Below, one piece after another: positions 47,771-54,501 of a stretch of 64,000 nucleotides of DNA (positions are counted from its first letter, which is position 1; each line of letters opens with the position of its first letter). The stretch is taken from positions 152,617 through 216,616 of the forward strand of contig CAYGQA010000001.1 of assembly GCA_964352145.1 (NCBI GenBank), in the 5' to 3' direction. Position numbers and translations under genes: made by a program. Source of the stretch: an uncultured Candidatus Peribacteria bacterium. Lineage in GTDB: Bacteria; Patescibacteriota; Gracilibacteria; JAUYGZ01. A model generated the notes under the pieces. The model was given only the letters and a program-made list of their open reading frames with translations. It had not been told where the DNA came from and did no database searches.

Positions 47771-48214
47771 ATGAAAATTTTAAGTACCAACAAAAAGGCC
47801 AAATTTGATTACGAAATCGTCGAAGAATACTCGGCTGGTATTAAGCTAGAAGGACGAGAAATCAAATCGCTACGCAATCAAAAACCCGCTTTTGCAGGGA
47901 GTTATGTCACGATCAGCAATGGAAAACCTATGCTCCATGATCTGAATATCCCTCGATATAAGCACGACCCTTCTCCAGAATATGATCCAAAGAGGGAACG
48001 TCTGCTTCTTTTGAAGCAATCAGAAATCAACCGTATCCAAGGAAAACTCAAAGAACAGGGAGTGACTGTGGTACCCATCGCGATCGGACTTGAGCGGCAA
48101 TGGGCCAAGGTGACGATAGGTATCGTCCGTGGTAAAAAGCAGCATGACAAAAGACAGACCATCCGTGACCGTGAAGATAAGCGAAAAATGCAACGAGTGA
48201 TGAAGCAATATTAA
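47771..48214 (+). CDS. smpB: SsrA-binding protein SmpB
   Basis: NKKAKFDYEI, GIKLEGREIKSLR and a basic C-terminal tail KKQHDKRQTIRDREDKRKM. Confidence 0.9.
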   Translation: MKILSTNKKAKFDYEIVEEYSAGIKLEGREIKSLRNQKPAFAGSYVTISNGKPMLHDLNIPRYKHDPSPEYDPKRERLLLLKQSEINRIQGKLKEQGVTVVPIAIGLERQWAKVTIGIVRGKKQHDKRQTIRDREDKRKMQRVMKQY

Positions 48215-48246: not shown

Positions 48247-48423
48247 ATGGGCAAAAAAGAAAAACAATTTTATCTTTGGTGGAGAGATCGTGTCTCTCTT
48301 TCAGAGAAATTAAGAATAATGTCAATTGAAAGCTCTGTAGTGATTAAAATGATGCAAACTGTTGATATTTTTTTAATTGATCCTGGTAAAAACCTCCCTG
48401 AAAAATTCAATACTTTTCACTGA
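48247..48423 (+). CDS. possible small protein (58 aa)
   Basis: ATG 48247 is preceded by AAGGAG at -13 to -8, one of the very few canonical SD sequences I saw in the window. Encodes MGKKEKQFYLWWRDRVSLSEK.... Below the track cutoff. Confidence 0.35.
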   Translation: MGKKEKQFYLWWRDRVSLSEKLRIMSIESSVVIKMMQTVDIFLIDPGKNLPEKFNTFH

Positions 48424-48545: not shown

Positions 48546-48601
48546 ATCAGCGGCGAAGACGATCCACAAATAAGCTCAACTATTTTTAAAATAGTAAAAT
48601 T

Positions 48602-48680
48602 GTGCCTCGCTACCACACAGACCTGAGTCCCTACGAGGGATACAGTGAAGTATGGACAGCGAGGCGATGCTCTCTGCTAG
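48602..48680 (-). terminator. cassette 3' hairpin H1 (conserved stem, U-rich tail), end of array
   Basis: Minus strand GCCUCGCUG-U-CCAUAC...GUGUGG-UAGCGAGGC with an internal UCCC-UCGUA-GGGA hairpin, followed by AAUUUUACUAUUUU. The G-U pairs work only on the minus strand. Confidence 0.55.
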
Positions 48681-49273
48681 TTTTCGATGTTTGCCATTTT
48701 TGAATTTACAATTCTTCTTAAACGTATAAATAAAGAGGCAAATTTTGGCATTAAATCCTCCTTATTTTCGGCTGCTAATTCTCTATCGAGAAAACTTTTT
48801 GCTATGGTTAGAAGAGCAAGTGAATCTACAAAACCTAGGTAATATTTGTAGAGAAAATCATCCATATCCTCAATCTCTTTCTGTGAGAGATCTTTAGGAT
48901 TTAGCATTGCGTTCTGTATCACTTCTAAACTAACTTTCTTTTTTTCTTCTTTTTTTTCTCGAGCTTCTGCTTCTTCATCGAGAACTTTTTGAGCCTCCTT
49001 AATCAAAAGTTTTTTTAAATTAGTTTCAATTTCGGAGTTTGGAACTAATCCTTTTTTTTCTTCATCTGCTTCTACAACCAATTCTGAATTATAATCCATT
49101 ACATAATATGTAAAGTTTTTTTCCAAAGGAATTTCCGAAGAATATTTTTGAAGGAGCTCCTTGAAGGGTTTTGTTTTTTCAGTACTTAAACTATCCCCTC
49201 TAGTAAGAGCCTCTAAACTCAGTCCGGACTCTTCTTTTCTTGAAAAAGAGATTTCTAAAATTATTGGATTCAT
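48677..49273 (-). CDS. cassette A protein (hypothetical, 198 aa)
   Basis: ORF body directly 3' of conserved leader L1. Start placed at AUG 49271-49273, because the track start at 49318 lies inside the leader. Confidence 0.6.
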   Translation of the reverse strand: MNPIILEISFSRKEESGLSLEALTRGDSLSTEKTKPFKELLQKYSSEIPLEKNFTYYVMDYNSELVVEADEEKKGLVPNSEIETNLKKLLIKEAQKVLDEEAEAREKKEEKKKVSLEVIQNAMLNPKDLSQKEIEDMDDFLYKYYLGFVDSLALLTIAKSFLDRELAAENKEDLMPKFASLFIRLRRIVNSKMANIEN

Positions 49274-49280
49274 CACATTA

Positions 49281-49396
49281 CCAACCAGCAGAGAGCGAAC
49301 TCCCTGCGGCCTTTTCATATATATTTTTTACAAATGAATACCCAAAGCAGAAGCTTTGAATGAGGCTCCACACGGAGTTCTCTGAATACTGATTGG
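49281..49396 (-). ncRNA. conserved structured cassette leader L1
   Basis: Closing helices CCAAUCAG/CUGGUUGG, CAGAG/CUCUG, AACUCC/GGAGUU and UGUGG/CCGCA, with apical hairpin CAAAGC-UUCU-GCUUUG. Nearly identical to L2-L4. Confidence 0.55.
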
Positions 49397-49425
49397 TTCG
49401 ATTTTTCAAGGTTCTTTAAAAATGC

Positions 49426-49501
49426 GTGCCTCGCTGCCATACCGGTCTGGCTCCCACGAAGGGAGGAGATATGGTCAACGAGGCGTGGCCTCTGCTGTTA
49501 G
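49426..49501 (-). terminator. cassette 3' hairpin H2
   Basis: GCCUCGUUG-A-CCAUA...UAUGG-CAGCGAGGC with internal CUCCC-UUCGU-GGGAG, followed by GCAUUUUUAAAG. Overlaps the cassette B stop codon. Confidence 0.5.
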
Positions 49502-50091
49502 TCGTCTTTCTTGAGCATAATTCTTATCAAATCAAGTTGTGCTGCTACTTGATTGTGAAGAGTAAGATCCTTGTCTTCTGTGCAGTCTCCATATTCTTTC
49601 ATTTCATCAAGATCTTTTTCAATCTGAACTGCGACGGGCAATATCCTGAGGATATCTGTAAGTAAGTCAGGTATATTTACCCCATCTGTTTTATCTCTCA
49701 AAGAGAAATTCACTATGTCACTTATTATGTCTTCCATTCTTTTACTAGTTTCTTTTATCTCTTGATCTTCCAAGTCTGATAGAATTGTTTTCGTAGTGTT
49801 TACGAGAAAAGCACCCAAATCTTTGAGAAAATCATCAGATAAATTTCCTCCTTGAGTTGCTTTTTCAGAACTCAAAAGACCTGAATCACTTGAGTAAACA
49901 AGAAAATCAAACTCTATTTCTGCAGGAATGTTATCCTTGTTTTGACAGAGAAAATGCTGGAATATATTTAGTTTTGCAGGATTTAACACTTCTTTTTCTT
50001 TGATGGTTAAGCTCACCATCATTCCTTTTTCTACTTTCTTACAGAAGCAAAGCCTTAAAACCTCTTCAGATGAATTTCCGCGTACTACCAT
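49498..50091 (-). CDS. cassette B protein (hypothetical, 197 aa)
   Basis: ORF body 3' of leader L2. Start placed at AUG 50089-50091. Ends ...KKDD, followed by UAACAGCAGAGG. Confidence 0.6.
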   Translation of the reverse strand: MVVRGNSSEEVLRLCFCKKVEKGMMVSLTIKEKEVLNPAKLNIFQHFLCQNKDNIPAEIEFDFLVYSSDSGLLSSEKATQGGNLSDDFLKDLGAFLVNTTKTILSDLEDQEIKETSKRMEDIISDIVNFSLRDKTDGVNIPDLLTDILRILPVAVQIEKDLDEMKEYGDCTEDKDLTLHNQVAAQLDLIRIMLKKDD

Positions 50092-50098
50092 CACATCA

Positions 50099-50214
50099 CC
50101 AACCAGCAGAGAGCGAACTCCCTGCGGCCCTTTCATATATATTTTTTACAAATGAATACCCAAAGCCGAAGCTTTGAATGAGGCTCCACACGGAGTTCTC
50201 TGAATACTGATTGG
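50099..50214 (-). ncRNA. conserved structured cassette leader L2
   Basis: Same helices as L1. The apical hairpin is CAAAGC-UUCG-GCUUUG. Confidence 0.55.
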
Positions 50215-50243
50215 CCCGTTTTTTCAAGGTTCTTAATAAAGTT

Positions 50244-50320
50244 GTGCCATCGCTGCCATATCGGTTCTTCTCCCTCGGAGGGAGGAGATATGGACAGCGA
50301 GGCGATGCCTCTGCTGTTAG
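50244..50320 (-). terminator. cassette 3' hairpin H3
   Basis: GCCUCGCUG-U-CCAUAUC...GAUAUGG-CAGCGAUGGC with internal CUCCC-UCCGA-GGGAG, followed by AACUUUAUUAAG. Overlaps the cassette C stop codon. Confidence 0.5.
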
Positions 50321-50934
50321 TCGTCTTGACTTAAAAGTTCTCTAAGCTCCTGAATAAGCTTCTTTGTTTTTGAAAGAGTCGGAATTTCGGAGATGAATTT
50401 TTTCTCATCTGCATCTAACTTACCTGTTACATCTTTCAAGTCACAAAAAAGAGACTCCGCTCTAAGTGCATTATCAATTTCTGCTAAACAAGTCTTCAAT
50501 TTGTCTGCAAAAGCACAATCAAGAGCCTCAATATCTAAAACACTCACCCCTCTTAACTTCTTCGTAGCTTTTTCAAGATTTACTTCTTTTTCATCAAGAC
50601 GCTGAAGTAAATTTGAAGCTAAAGTGAGCATACGCCCACGAAGTCTTTTGCAAAATTTTGAAGCAGACTTTATGCTGCCTTCGATTTTTCTAAAAGACAA
50701 AGCCTCTGTGTCGAGTACTACCTCAAAACTGTATATCTCCTCGGATTCAAACTCTTCTTTGTTCTTGTTTATGAACGCTTCCATGCGTTCCAAGCTGGTT
50801 TCAATAAGCTCTTTCTCTTTACAAGAAAAAGTTACTTCTACGTTCCTTGAGCCTTTTCTTCTGAAAAAAGATACATGAAGTACTTGATCGTCTTCATAAA
50901 GCTGTCCTTCAGAAAAATCTCCAATTACTACCAT
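50317..50934 (-). CDS. cassette C protein (hypothetical, 205 aa)
   Basis: ORF body 3' of leader L3. Start placed at AUG 50932-50934. The 263-aa track ORF reads through the leader and promoter. Ends ...SQDD, followed by UAACAGCAGAGG. Confidence 0.6.
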   Translation of the reverse strand: MVVIGDFSEGQLYEDDQVLHVSFFRRKGSRNVEVTFSCKEKELIETSLERMEAFINKNKEEFESEEIYSFEVVLDTEALSFRKIEGSIKSASKFCKRLRGRMLTLASNLLQRLDEKEVNLEKATKKLRGVSVLDIEALDCAFADKLKTCLAEIDNALRAESLFCDLKDVTGKLDADEKKFISEIPTLSKTKKLIQELRELLSQDD

Positions 50935-50941
50935 CACATTA

Positions 50942-51056
50942 CCAACCAGCAGAGAGCGAACTCCCTGTGGCCCTTCATACGCATAACTTACAAATGAATA
51001 CCCAAAGTCGAAACTTTGAGTGAGGCTCCACACGGAGTTCTCTGAATACTGATTGG
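50942..51056 (-). ncRNA. conserved structured cassette leader L3
   Basis: Same helices as L1. The apical hairpin CAAAGU-UUCG-ACUUUG shows a compensatory C-G to U-A change. CCACA replaces CCGCA, turning a U-G pair into U-A. Confidence 0.55.
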
Positions 51057-51089
51057 TTCGATTTTTCAAAGTACACCAAAAGAGTGCAC

Positions 51090-51118
51090 AGTTTACTTTA
51101 CATCTCATATTATGTCAA
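51090..51118 (-). promoter_or_regulatory. cassette promoter P2 (TTGACA-17-TAAACT)
   Basis: Minus strand: TTGACA (51118-51113), 17-nt spacer, TAAACT (51095-51090). The block is shared with P1. Confidence 0.55.
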
Positions 51119-51142
51119 TAATTTCTGACATTATAAAAAGTT

Positions 51143-51217
51143 GTGCGTCGCTGCCATACGTTCGATTCCCTACGAGGGAGGAGGTATGGACAGCGAGGCA
51201 TGTGCCTCTGCTGTTAA
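51143..51217 (-). terminator. cassette 3' hairpin H4
   Basis: GCCUCGCUG-U-CCAUACC...ACGUAUGG-CAGCGACGC with internal UCCC-UCGUA-GGGA, followed by AACUUUUUAUAAUG. Confidence 0.5.
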
Positions 51218-51245
51218 TTTAAGTTCTCTTCTTTGCTTGATCAAA

Positions 51246-51551
51246 CTACTGATTCATTCTCATTCCAAGGTTGATGGCATGCGCATACAGTTGATGCAGA
51301 ATATCAGACGACATACTCAAAAGATTCTCGTTTGGTTTTACAGCAATTCCACCATCATGAGGTTCATATACCTCAATACTGATTACTTTCCCTATAGGAA
51401 AGTTCTCAATATTCTGTTCGATATACTCCACTAAAAATTTTTGAACTTCTTTTAAAGAATCTGGAATCTCCTGTGAGAAGTTGATATCAAATTCTTTGGA
51501 AGATTTTTTTCTGAGAATCTCAATTCGGATGAGTTCTTTTTTAGTCCCCAT
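51246..51551 (-). CDS. cassette D protein (hypothetical, 101 aa; N-domain only)
   Basis: ORF body 3' of leader L4. Start placed at AUG 51549-51551, because the track start at 51563 is a TTG inside the leader helix. Confidence 0.6.
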   Translation of the reverse strand: MGTKKELIRIEILRKKSSKEFDINFSQEIPDSLKEVQKFLVEYIEQNIENFPIGKVISIEVYEPHDGGIAVKPNENLLSMSSDILHQLYAHAINLGMRMNQ

Positions 51552-51559
51552 TCTTTTTA

Positions 51560-51681
51560 CCAACCAGCAGAGAGCGAACTCCCTGCGGCCCTTTCTTTAC
51601 ACTTGTTTCTAAAAACAACATAAAACCCAAAGCAGAAGCTTTGAATGAGGCTCCACACGGAGTTCTCTGAATACTGATTGG
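51560..51681 (-). ncRNA. conserved structured cassette leader L4
   Basis: Same closing helices and apical hairpin as L1. The A/U linker is replaced by a small extra hairpin, UUGUUU-UUAG-AAACAA. Confidence 0.55.
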
Positions 51682-51714
51682 TTCGATTTTTCAAAGTACA
51701 CCAAAAGAGTGCAC

Positions 51715-51743
51715 AGTTTACTTTACATTTATAATTCTGTCAA
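51715..51743 (-). promoter_or_regulatory. cassette promoter P1 (TTGACA-17-TAAACT)
   Basis: Minus strand: TTGACA (51743-51738), 17-nt spacer, TAAACT (51720-51715). It lies 31 nt downstream of the asnS stop. Confidence 0.55.
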
Positions 51744-51773
51744 CAATCTCTGACATTTAATCTGAAAAATGTC

Positions 51774-53063
51774 TTAAGGAGCCAGACGGTTCATAAGACG
51801 AGGGAAGGGGATGGTCTCTCTGACATGCTTCAATCCGCACATCCATCCGACGATACGCTCGAGTCCATAACCAAATCCAGAGTGAGGAACTGATCCGTAT
51901 CGACGTAAGTCCATATACCATTCAAGGCCTTTTTCAGGGACATTATGCTCAGACATCCATTTTTTCATGAGCTCTAGATCATCTTCTCGTTGTGAACCTC
52001 CGATGATTTCTCCGTATCCTTCAGGAGCAAGAAGATCGACACAGAGACAATTTTGTTCATCTTCAGTTCTCTTCATGTAGAAGGCTTTTACCTTCGCTGG
52101 GTAATGAGTGACGAAGATTGGTTGGTCATATTTTTTTGTCAGGATAGTCTCATCATCACCTCCAAGGTCTCTATCAGCGGTGATATCAGAGCCCATTGAT
52201 TGCAGCTCAGCGACTGCCTCAGCGTGAGTCATACGTTTGAAAGGACCTTTGATCTTTTTCAGTGGCTCGAGATCTCTTTCGAGAGTGAGCAGTTCTTTTT
52301 CTTTATTTTCCAAGACTCTTTTGATGACATGCAACATGAGGGATTCTTGGATATCGATGATTCCTTCGAGGTCACAGAAGGTAGCCTCAGCATCCATCAT
52401 CCAAAACTCTGTCAGGTGACGTCTTGTCTTTGATTTCTCTGAACGAAATACTGGTCCAAAATCAAAACCACGTCCACAACTCATCACGGCTGCCTCAAGG
52501 TAGAGTTGTCCAGATTGAGCGAGATAAGCTTGTCCTTCGTCGAAGTATTCCATTTCAAAGAGTTCTGTTGAACCTTCACAGGCATTATTCGTCATGATCG
52601 GTGTATCGACTTTCATAAAGCCGTTTGTATGCATCCATTCGAAGGTGGCTCGGATGACTTCGTCACGGACTCTTTGTACTGCGAGTTGTTTTTGAGAGCG
52701 AAGCCAGAGATGTCTATTGTCGAGGAGGAACTCCGGACCATGTTCTTTTTTTCCAATTGGGTATTCTTCCGCTATTTGGATGATTTCTATATCAGAAACC
52801 TGTATTTCAAACACATCCTCTTTTTTTGGATGTTGAGAGATGGTACCAGTCACTCGTACAGATGATTCGATAGTCAGTTGTTCTGCTTTTTCCATGACTT
52901 CTGGAGCGACTGCAGAAGCCTCTACGACTCCTTGCATTACCCCGGTCCCATCACGTAGCTGAAGGAAGGCAATCTTCCCAGACCCTCGCTTGTTGTACAT
53001 CCATCCTTGGATAGTGACCGTTTGGTCGACGAAATCTTTAGCATCTTTAATGAAAAAACTCAT
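51774..53063 (-). CDS. asnS: asparaginyl-tRNA synthetase
   Basis: Class IIb enzyme with an OB-fold N-terminus, FRSEKSKTRRHLTEFWMMDAE and GFGYGLERIV. Length is typical of AsnRS. Start set at ATG 53061-53063, because the track start is a TTG. Confidence 0.85.
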   Translation of the reverse strand: MSFFIKDAKDFVDQTVTIQGWMYNKRGSGKIAFLQLRDGTGVMQGVVEASAVAPEVMEKAEQLTIESSVRVTGTISQHPKKEDVFEIQVSDIEIIQIAEEYPIGKKEHGPEFLLDNRHLWLRSQKQLAVQRVRDEVIRATFEWMHTNGFMKVDTPIMTNNACEGSTELFEMEYFDEGQAYLAQSGQLYLEAAVMSCGRGFDFGPVFRSEKSKTRRHLTEFWMMDAEATFCDLEGIIDIQESLMLHVIKRVLENKEKELLTLERDLEPLKKIKGPFKRMTHAEAVAELQSMGSDITADRDLGGDDETILTKKYDQPIFVTHYPAKVKAFYMKRTEDEQNCLCVDLLAPEGYGEIIGGSQREDDLELMKKWMSEHNVPEKGLEWYMDLRRYGSVPHSGFGYGLERIVGWMCGLKHVRETIPFPRLMNRLAP

Positions 53064-53272
53064 GGAAAACAATAAAAAAAACAGTGATAGCAGTATAATG
53101 GAGCCTTCATAAATACCAAAAGAGAATGCGTCGTTTTATTACGGTGACAAAGTAAACTCCTCTAAAGATTCTTGCCAAAGATGAAGTTCAGATGAAGACT
53201 ATAGATCATTTTATTGAAGACCTTGAGAGGCAGGCGTAGGATAAATATCCATTATGAATAAACACAGGAATC

Positions 53273-53767
53273 ATGAGCCTTACGAAAAATGATCTCCAGC
53301 AGATCAAAAATGTCGTCACTGAAGTGATCGATGAAAAAGTCCCGAAGATGATAGATGAAGGTATAGAAAGGAAAGTGCCAAAAATGATAGAAGATGCTAT
53401 CGATAAGAAGGTACCTAAAATGATAGAAGACGCTATCGACAAGAAAGTGCCTGCAATGATCCAAGAAGGAGCTTCTGAAGTTTTTGTACAAGGCTTCGAG
53501 AATTATGTCATCCCATATGTAGACTCAAAATTTAATGAACTAAAAGGAGAAATGGATCACAGATTTGAAAAAATGGATATTAGGTTTGAAAAAGTAGATG
53601 AGACATTCAAAAAACTCAACAACAATATGGATAAGCATGTCTTAAGTCTTCACGAAAGAATCGATGACTCAATAACACTTAATGATCGTTATTATTACGA
53701 CTGTGCCACAAAGAACGAGCATAAAGCTCTTATCACAGGAGTGAATCGACTTGAATCTGCTCTTTAA
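53273..53767 (+). CDS. hypothetical helical protein with 12-aa tandem repeats (paralog of 10404..10709)
   Basis: KVPKMIDEGIER / KVPKMIEDAIDK / KVPKMIEDAIDK / KVPAMIQEG. The N-terminus and DHRFEK motif are shared with the 10404 ORF. Confidence 0.55.
   Translation: MSLTKNDLQQIKNVVTEVIDEKVPKMIDEGIERKVPKMIEDAIDKKVPKMIEDAIDKKVPAMIQEGASEVFVQGFENYVIPYVDSKFNELKGEMDHRFEKMDIRFEKVDETFKKLNNNMDKHVLSLHERIDDSITLNDRYYYDCATKNEHKALITGVNRLESAL
53336..53470. repeat. 36-bp in-frame tandem repeat (about 3.75 units)
   Basis: Units at 53336-53371, 53372-53407 and 53408-53443, with a partial unit at 53444-53470. Confidence 0.85.
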
Positions 53768-54501
53768 TTGCTCTGCTGCCACATCACCTCGAAGAGACTT
53801 GATAAGATATCGTAAGCAGCTTGAGAATCCAGGATGAAACCAAACATCTCTTGTTTTTTGAATGAGCTTATAGAAACCTTACTAGCTCCGAAAAGCAGTA
53901 ACTCTATATATAACTCTTTTTGCGAAAGAGAATCTAAAAGTCGATGTTCTGTATAAATCCCGGGATCATCTTTTTTGATCTTTTGATTCTTTTTTGTGTT
54001 GGGGCATATAAGCCTAGCGAAGTTCTTTCGATCTTTTCTCATCGGGATGATTTCTTTTCTGATGTACTCAAAAAGCGCCGCTGGCATATGACTATAATCA
54101 GTAAAACCCATCGTTTCACCTTTTTCATGACCCAACTCTAAGAGGATCTCTTTCATTCCTTCTAAACCGTCGAAGAAACGTATACGAGGTTTTAGAGGGC
54201 TTTCAAAAGCCATATCTATCAACTGAGGAAGCATATTTTCAGCGAGCGCTGCTGATTGTTTAAAACGATTCACTAAAATCTGAGGATTAAGTGCAGAAGC
54301 ATACTTCACTCCTTTTTTCTTTATCGTTTTAACAACAGCTTTTTTTTCTAAAACTTCTATGACGGGGTAAACAGTACTTCTTTTGATCCCAGTTTTTGCT
54401 GCGACTTGAGAGTAGGGGAGCTCTCCCATGCTTAAAATGGCTAAATAAATCTTCGCTTCTTTTTCTGAGAAACCGTTTTTTATCAGGATGTCTTGTATCA
54501 T
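53764..54501 (-). CDS. TrmB-family transcriptional regulator
   Basis: N-terminal wHTH GFSEKEAKIYLAILSMGELPYSQVAAKTGIKRSTVYPVIEVLEKKAVV. Confidence 0.7.
   Translation of the reverse strand: MIQDILIKNGFSEKEAKIYLAILSMGELPYSQVAAKTGIKRSTVYPVIEVLEKKAVVKTIKKKGVKYASALNPQILVNRFKQSAALAENMLPQLIDMAFESPLKPRIRFFDGLEGMKEILLELGHEKGETMGFTDYSHMPAALFEYIRKEIIPMRKDRKNFARLICPNTKKNQKIKKDDPGIYTEHRLLDSLSQKELYIELLLFGASKVSISSFKKQEMFGFILDSQAAYDILSSLFEVMWQQSN

Follow-up and report, generated by a model that had tools for sequence, protein, structure and literature searches.

Tandem, fast-diverging paralogs between conserved RNA flanks in an uncultured Gracilibacteria genome

The window analysed here, 64,000 nucleotides of contig CAYGQA010000001.1 from an uncultured Gracilibacteria bacterium of the candidate phyla radiation (CPR), contains four minus-strand open reading frames (ORFs), in the order D, C, B, A, between asnS and the convergent smpB. 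As the best explanation of the locus as a whole, we lean towards serial tandem duplication of a unit that encodes a fast-evolving, non-enzymatic cytoplasmic protein and is controlled at the RNA level. More remarkable than the protein family is its inverted conservation, in which the RNA flanks are far better conserved than the protein that they enclose. From the comparisons below, the protein sequence appears to have diverged to random level between genera, and both RNA flanks have stayed alignable.

What relates four proteins that have so little sequence in common? A first-pass annotation, made from the DNA letters alone, had described them as a very divergent paralog family, and both shuffle z-scores and leave-one-out hidden Markov models (HMMs) bear this out. 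By BLASTP, B and C are collinear over their full length at 22% identity (E = 2e-7), C matches D with E = 4e-6, and A matches B with E = 0.016. Full-length local alignment gives z = 5.2 for A-B, 7.5 for B-C and 7.5 for C-D, a result equalled by 0 of 400 composition-preserving shuffles in each case. When the proteins are split after strand 4, Smith-Waterman alignment of the N-domains gives z = 7.2 (A-B), 7.9 (B-C) and 6.6 (C-D), each with 0 of 1000 shuffles, and the C-terminal parts are not significant save for C-D (z = 4.2), where the similarity spans helix 2; detectable similarity is thus confined to the N-terminal domain, as had been claimed, with that one exception. The A-C, A-D and B-D pairs show no significant similarity on their own in the shuffle tests, so the family is linked only transitively. 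With all 6,688 genome ORFs of at least 60 amino acids as the search space, the omitted paralog tops the non-training sequences in every leave-one-out HMM search (E = 0.012 for A, 0.034 for B, 1.9e-7 for C and 8.4e-5 for D), and the same profiles find no fifth member among these ORFs. Similarity is strongest between neighbours, which matches stepwise tandem duplication, and A to D evidently arose by serial tandem duplication of one gene. The profile match extends past the TAG stop of D, which identifies D as a truncated copy; about 40 nt lie between this TAG and the ancestral TAA-CAGCAGAGGC box. D had been read as the N-domain alone: the N-domain is indeed present, and D also holds the start of helix 2.

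These comparisons depend on where translation begins. The start codons had been "corrected" in the first-pass annotation, and the correction is justified, since leader conservation ends at GGTAA, 3-8 nt before those ATGs. In A and B an upstream in-frame ATG lies inside the conserved leader; C has its equivalent in another frame, D has none, and in the same-genus relative the upstream ATG reads the conserved leader nucleotides in a different frame. Because the frame of the upstream ATG is not conserved, the leader is a non-coding element, and the corrected starts hold; a translated N-terminal extension, "MKRPQGVRSLLVGNV", was ruled out on the same ground. Publicly annotated versions of A, B and C (213, 212 and 263 amino acids) start inside or upstream of the leader (49274-49318, 50092-50136 and 50935-51108) and translate the conserved RNA strand as a spurious common N-terminus (…PQGVRSLLVG…). 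In-frame codon log-odds of A to D are 0.18-0.25, compared with a genome mean of 0.236 +/- 0.061, and off-frame values are -0.4 to -0.5. Judged by this genome-typical codon usage, A to D are genuine native coding genes.

The cassettes had also been said to be expressed from standardised control elements, and a conserved leader does precede, and a conserved trailer follow, each of the four ORFs. The leaders (about 140 nt) are 80-96% identical and the trailers 68-80%, compared with 40-56% for the ORF DNA, which is near the floor for global alignment. Across eight leaders, four from this array and four from related genomes, a 25-bp interrupted rod joins the two ends of the leader, with 95% of cells paired and compensatory changes at 11 pairs; 0 of 500 shuffles equal it, and slid controls reach 30-48%. 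The rod has an invariant 3' strand, UC(R)CUCUCUGCUGGU. In seven of the eight cassettes a CCAGCAGAGA-like 3' box, located 0-15 nt after the stop codon, is complementary to the invariant leader strand, and it covaries with that strand, as GGUUU/AAACC in the cassette on contig C3 of the related genome G004 and as GGUCA/UGACC in the one on contig C5 of that genome. The RNA is evidently under strong structural constraint. In whole-transcript minimum free energy (MFE) folds, the invariant strand pairs with the leader 5' strand in five of seven transcripts and with the 3' box in one of seven, and the rod and 3'-box pairings are, in these modelled folds, competing alternatives. Rfam 15 covariance models run on leader and trailer give nothing relevant even at E <= 5, and no trans partner of the invariant strand was found elsewhere in the genome. 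The leader of each paralog also forms an apical hairpin, CAAAGC-UUCU-GCUUUG, followed by a U-rich run that scores as terminator-like (49340-49361, 50158-50179, 51000-51021 and 51625-51646, minus strand). This hairpin could act in attenuation. In other genera, the apical region shows no conservation. An origin of the repeats from tmRNA, or through island integration beside smpB, was considered and rejected, since contig C17 carries the tmRNA gene and this locus shows no tmRNA-like signal.

The cassette repeat is found at no other place in the source genome (1.63 Mb, 98.6% complete). A covariance model of the leader detects it in four of the seven genomes of the family, with four copies here, one in G001 (same genus), two in G004 and one in G005; in about 294 further genomes from the same class it has no match. 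G004 carries a single cassette in the same slot, between asnS and convergent smpB. This cassette shares 67% identity with B in the trailer hairpin and 59% in the leader, and between the two genomes AsnRS is 81% and SmpB 60% identical, whereas the cassette proteins are at 17-19%, which is random level. The proteins behind the G001, G004 contig C3 and G005 leaders follow the same strand-turn-strand-helix-strand-strand sequence pattern as A to D. In a MAFFT alignment, strands 1-2 of the G004 and G005 proteins line up with those of A to D, and the G001 protein is offset. On contig C5 of G004 (L041, 1851-2865), a protein of 265 amino acids with no detectable similarity to the others is flanked by this leader and 3' box. 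It has a C-x-C-x4-C motif, its N-terminal pattern differs, and its neighbours are an ABC transporter and a RecD/Pif1-like helicase. The RNA module is thus not bound to a single protein family. Across five contexts, the neighbours of the module are asnS/smpB, purQ-like/peroxiredoxin, ABC transporter/helicase and GTPase/943-aa ORF. The cross-genus proteins represent either extreme divergence of one orthologous gene or exchange of coding segments between inverted repeats, and we favour the former because both flanks abut the ORF.

Several observations weigh against our best explanation of the locus. Between A to D and the proteins behind the G001, G004 contig C3 and G005 leaders, shuffle z is below 2 and hhalign probability below 1%. 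AlphaFold2 gives the G004 N-domain the same E-E-H-E-E-H order, but at a predicted local distance difference test (pLDDT) score of 44, too low to count as evidence, which leaves room for ORF replacement rather than divergence. The asnS-smpB slot is empty in G003 (L066, 930-1100), where it contains only a bidirectional terminator, and in G005 (L065, 1176-1664) it holds an unrelated ORF of 162 amino acids. The G001 and G005 cassettes are at loci other than this slot, and with the slot itself so variable the unit is best seen as accessory; it may be mobile. Finally, the truncation of D fits relaxed selection as well as it fits diversification.

To what extent can the protein be described? In the AlphaFold2 model of C, the elements are E17-25, E32-38, H41-57, E67-75, E78-85 and H93-128, with pLDDT of 80-91 across residues 20-120, 54-69 in the helical tail and an overall mean of 71.8. 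The model was built on the four-sequence alignment and so depends on it, and two of the five models are at pLDDT 41-45. The segments that the first-pass annotation had aligned by eye as a beta-beta-alpha-beta-beta pattern coincide with the AlphaFold2 elements of C, to which the model adds a long helix. Of the acidic helical region of about 120 amino acids said to follow, the helical tail of the C model and the acidity of the proteins (pI 4.6-5.6, net charge -3 to -14 for A to D) agree with the description, although the tail is modelled with low confidence. B and C do both end in DD, and the claimed lack of a signal peptide or transmembrane segment holds as well, with a maximum 19-residue hydropathy of at most 1.27 and no N-terminal hydrophobic segment. 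The only residues invariant in A to D are K27, V72 and L98 (C numbering), so that the single invariant polar residue is a lysine, which argues against an enzyme. The protein is predicted with good support to be soluble and acidic, with an N-domain of about 110 amino acids and a loosely constrained helical tail.

Searches for known relatives were uniformly negative. For A to D there is no match above noise in Pfam (none at E <= 1), PHROGs, NCBIfam or PADLOC, and a profile search of PDB sequences returns only keratin-type coiled-coil noise. With the C model as query, no Foldseek match goes below E = 0.19 for PDB or E = 0.04 for BFVD, and all TM scores are under 0.32. Among 5.8 billion proteins, word-indexed searches retrieve nothing but the query, both for C and for the G004 protein. 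Among 1.84 billion representatives, an exhaustive HMMER profile search finds the four window proteins and two weak matches, a 1,523-aa repeat protein and a 191-aa protein (E = 1e-4), which we judged spurious. Scans of genome contigs and of metagenome proteins reveal no further members. No known family emerges by profile or fold, in keeping with the earlier statements that no motif is recognisable and that function cannot be inferred from sequence, and no confident match removes the novelty of the family, which, as defined by sequence, is apparently confined to its source genome.

Taken together, these features suggest how such a locus might work. The duplicated unit comprises, in order, a sigma-70-type promoter with a palindromic, operator-like site (C and D only), the leader of about 140 nt, the ORF, the 3' box and a terminator hairpin, and is self-contained between asnS and smpB. 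Its protein product would be a binder or scaffold rather than an enzyme, in which only the fold is constrained and the surface is free, or driven, to change. Dosage would be set post-transcriptionally, with the leader 5' strand and the 3' box competing for the invariant strand, and that competition could lead to RNase III-type cleavage or to a change in stability or translation; the genome does encode RNase III. The fourfold amplification could most readily be viewed as the result of selection for variety in a conflict or host-interaction setting, and this is the weakest step of the proposal.

Such a setting invites comparison with the immunity-protein, antitoxin, anti-defence or variable-effector repertoires of which the first-pass annotation had thought hypervariable paralogs under standardised control elements to be typical. 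That suggestion did not fare well, as there is no PADLOC match, no partner in any of the five contexts, no secretion signal and no mobile-element context. The more specific proposal, in which each paralog of an immunity, antitoxin or anti-defence repertoire neutralises a different toxin or defence or attack protein, would explain small, acidic, cytoplasmic proteins that lack a catalytic motif and evolve extremely fast in a tandem array, and the array does resemble the orphan immunity-gene arrays of polymorphic-toxin systems, which are also tandem, fast-evolving and composed of small cytoplasmic proteins without enzymatic motifs. Unlike in those arrays, there is here no cognate toxin, no Imm/SUKH-type domain and no nearby secretion system; Pfam and PHROGs are as silent as PADLOC; no toxin, secretion or defence gene adjoins the module in any of the five contexts, which speaks equally against a type II toxin-antitoxin or immunity pair; and related genomes hold only one or two cassettes each, most of them a single copy. 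We consider an immunity repertoire unlikely.

A more speculative extension, to which we attach slightly less weight, would be that rod leader, 3' box and ORF form an undescribed post-transcriptional module that marks a private, hypervariable repertoire of intracellular proteins in this lineage of Gracilibacteria, and that the inverted repeats of 11-13 nt that exactly bracket the ORFs also allow integrase-free swapping or inversion of the coding segments.

If the RNA is so strongly conserved, might the proteins bind it? In an autoregulatory scheme, the 25-bp rod of each leader would be bound by the N-domain encoded behind it, and the mRNA would be repressed or stabilised by its own product. Seven of the eight leaders are followed by proteins that share the beta-beta-alpha-beta-beta sequence pattern, and the weak Foldseek matches include the flat-sheet alpha+beta RNA binders p19 and Mago, none of them significant (E > 0.19, TM < 0.3). 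However, the RNA strand is invariant and no protein surface residue is conserved, and the proteins are acidic; this combination of invariant RNA, variable surface and acidic protein makes self-binding of the leader unlikely. The contig C5 leader of G004, with a protein of no detectable similarity and different N-terminal pattern behind it, also counts against the scheme, which we regard as improbable.

We give no more credence to mobile cassettes, either integron-like or recombining at the inverted repeats that bracket the ORFs (CTCTCTGCTGG ... CCAGCAGAGAG), with unrelated cargo. These repeats are 5-25 nt from the start codon and 0-15 nt from the stop codon, the ORFs are not alignable between genera, the slot is empty in G003, and cassettes occupy different loci in G001, G005 and G004. 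As in integron cassette arrays, small ORFs of unknown function lie in the same orientation, with conserved imperfect palindromes between them and inverted core sequences bracketing them. There is no IntI-type recombinase by the array, however: tyrosine recombinases (PF00589) match only on contigs C9 and C25, and the array is on C1, among housekeeping genes, so there is no evidence for an integron, and that reading was rejected. Unlike integron attC sites (about 57-141 bp, RYYYAAC ... GTTRRRY), the inter-ORF repeat is about 240 nt including promoters and has no GTTRRRY/RYYYAAC core, and the cassette boundary words GTTGGTA and ACTAAC/CTAGCAG do not fit the attC R''/L''/L'/R' cores. Unlike integron cassettes, which are promoterless and carry unrelated cargo, C and D have their own promoters, A to D are paralogous, and codon usage is native. 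The G-U pairs point to RNA folding of the sense strand, and the motif was not found in viral contigs. The leader pattern was found on three contigs of JGI metagenomes, of which the one that was read (L052) has neither outer helix nor downstream ORF; on this ground all three are taken as chance matches.

Decaying duplicates under relaxed selection, with only the RNA elements or a single copy still functional, would account for the truncation of D and for extreme protein divergence beside conserved flanks, but are equally doubtful given three intact ORFs of 197-205 codons with genome-typical in-frame codon usage, a confident N-domain model, a streamlined genome of 1.63 Mb and intact ORFs of 231-265 codons behind the leader in three other genomes.

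Serial duplication of a self-contained, RNA-controlled unit is therefore the reading that we carry forward, and its parts and flanks are collected in Table 1. Equivalents of the C and D promoters are absent at A and B. The palindrome at these two promoters, TGTCAGARATTRTTGACA (18 nt, TGTCA-N8-TGACA; 51737-51754 and 51113-51130, minus strand), overlaps their -35 boxes and has the look of an operator to which a dimeric repressor could bind. The gene of a TrmB-family regulator (53764-54501) lies 2 kb from the palindrome. On the other side of the array, a stretch of about 460 nt of non-coding DNA separates smpB from the trailer of A, and within it, just downstream of smpB, sits an ORF of 58 codons with a good Shine-Dalgarno sequence and no Pfam match (48247-48423, plus strand). 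Another ORF without a Pfam match (53273-53767, plus strand) encodes 164 amino acids with internal tandem repeats of about 13 residues (KVPKMIEDAIDK-like).

Table 1. Features of the asnS-smpB locus, in positions of the window.
Feature	Position	Strand	Description
Paralog D	51246..51551	-	101 aa; N-domain and start of helix 2; truncated copy
Paralog C	50317..50934	-	205 aa; beta-beta-alpha-beta-beta + helix N-domain; acidic helical tail ending in DD
Paralog B	49498..50091	-	197 aa; ends in DD
Paralog A	48677..49273	-	198 aa; most divergent member
Leader of D	51552..51695	-	rod-shaped structured 5' untranslated region (UTR); covariance-model match and covariation
Leader of C	50935..51070	-	covariance-model match and covariation
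Leader of B	50092..50228	-	covariance-model match and covariation
Leader of A	49274..49410	-	covariance-model match and covariation
Trailer of D	51125..51212	-	3' box (A)CAGCAGAGGC, hairpin of ~65 nt, U-run
Trailer of C	50235..50316	-	3' box and terminator hairpin
Trailer of B	49416..49497	-	67% identical to trailer of the same-slot G004 cassette
Trailer of A	48595..48676	-	box UAGCAGAGAGC and hairpin; box pairs with invariant leader strand in whole-transcript MFE fold
Promoter of D, sigma-70-type	51715..51743	-	TTGACA-17-TAAACT, 10/12 match
Promoter of C, sigma-70-type	51090..51118	-	TTGACA-17-TAAACT, 10/12 match
asnS, upstream flank	51774..53072	-	Pfam tRNA-synt_2, E = 2e-71; same flank in G004, G003 and G005
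smpB, convergent downstream flank	47771..48214	+	

The tiny genomes of CPR bacteria (Patescibacteria) retain lineage-specific orphan genes whose roles in an episymbiotic or predatory lifestyle are unknown, and this locus is a clean case, with a protein unrecognisable between genera, RNA flanks held by selection and a fourfold gene amplification in one genome. The leader and its complementary 3' box are a candidate for a new, family-specific cis-regulatory RNA, and the N-domain is a compact predicted domain without a structural match. Adaptive diversification would point to a conflict or host-interaction interface that has gone unrecognised, and non-adaptive diversification would show how weak the sequence constraint on a retained bacterial protein can be.

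How does the locus compare with known systems? The N-domain shares its small size, its N-terminal position and its beta-beta-alpha-beta-beta order with the AbrB/MazE/SpoVT swapped-hairpin proteins. Unlike in those proteins, the domain here has about twice the length and a packed helix of 35 residues after it, is acidic and has no toxin partner, and AbrB/MazE/SpoVT (PF04014) appears neither in Pfam at E <= 1 nor among the Foldseek PDB chains or the PDB sequence matches. At the RNA level, the 3'-UTR box complementary to the 5' UTR of its own mRNA is reminiscent of icaR mRNA of S. aureus, in which 5'UTR-3'UTR pairing is reportedly cleaved by RNase III, and the long imperfect duplexes between the array genes, in a genome with RNase III, recall phage T7, which has RNase III hairpins between its early genes. 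Unlike in icaR, the pairing here leaves the ribosome-binding site uncovered and competes with an intra-leader rod, and cleavage is only proposed.

The Mycoplasma vlp, vsp and vsa multigene families combine a conserved 5' non-coding region with divergent coding regions. The array resembles them in having tandem paralogs in a small-genome, host-dependent bacterium, a leader that is more conserved than the coding sequence, and a copy number that varies between relatives. The Mycoplasma proteins are surface lipoproteins with a conserved signal peptide, and they switch through homopolymer tracts or through site-specific inversion. Here, conservation does not extend past the start codon, hydropathy stays at or below the maximum of 1.27 given above, and the proteins do not belong to a lipoprotein family of this type. 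Unlike in the Mycoplasma families, the array lacks a signal peptide or lipobox, a repeat tract and a nearby recombinase, and its conserved element is a covarying RNA rod.

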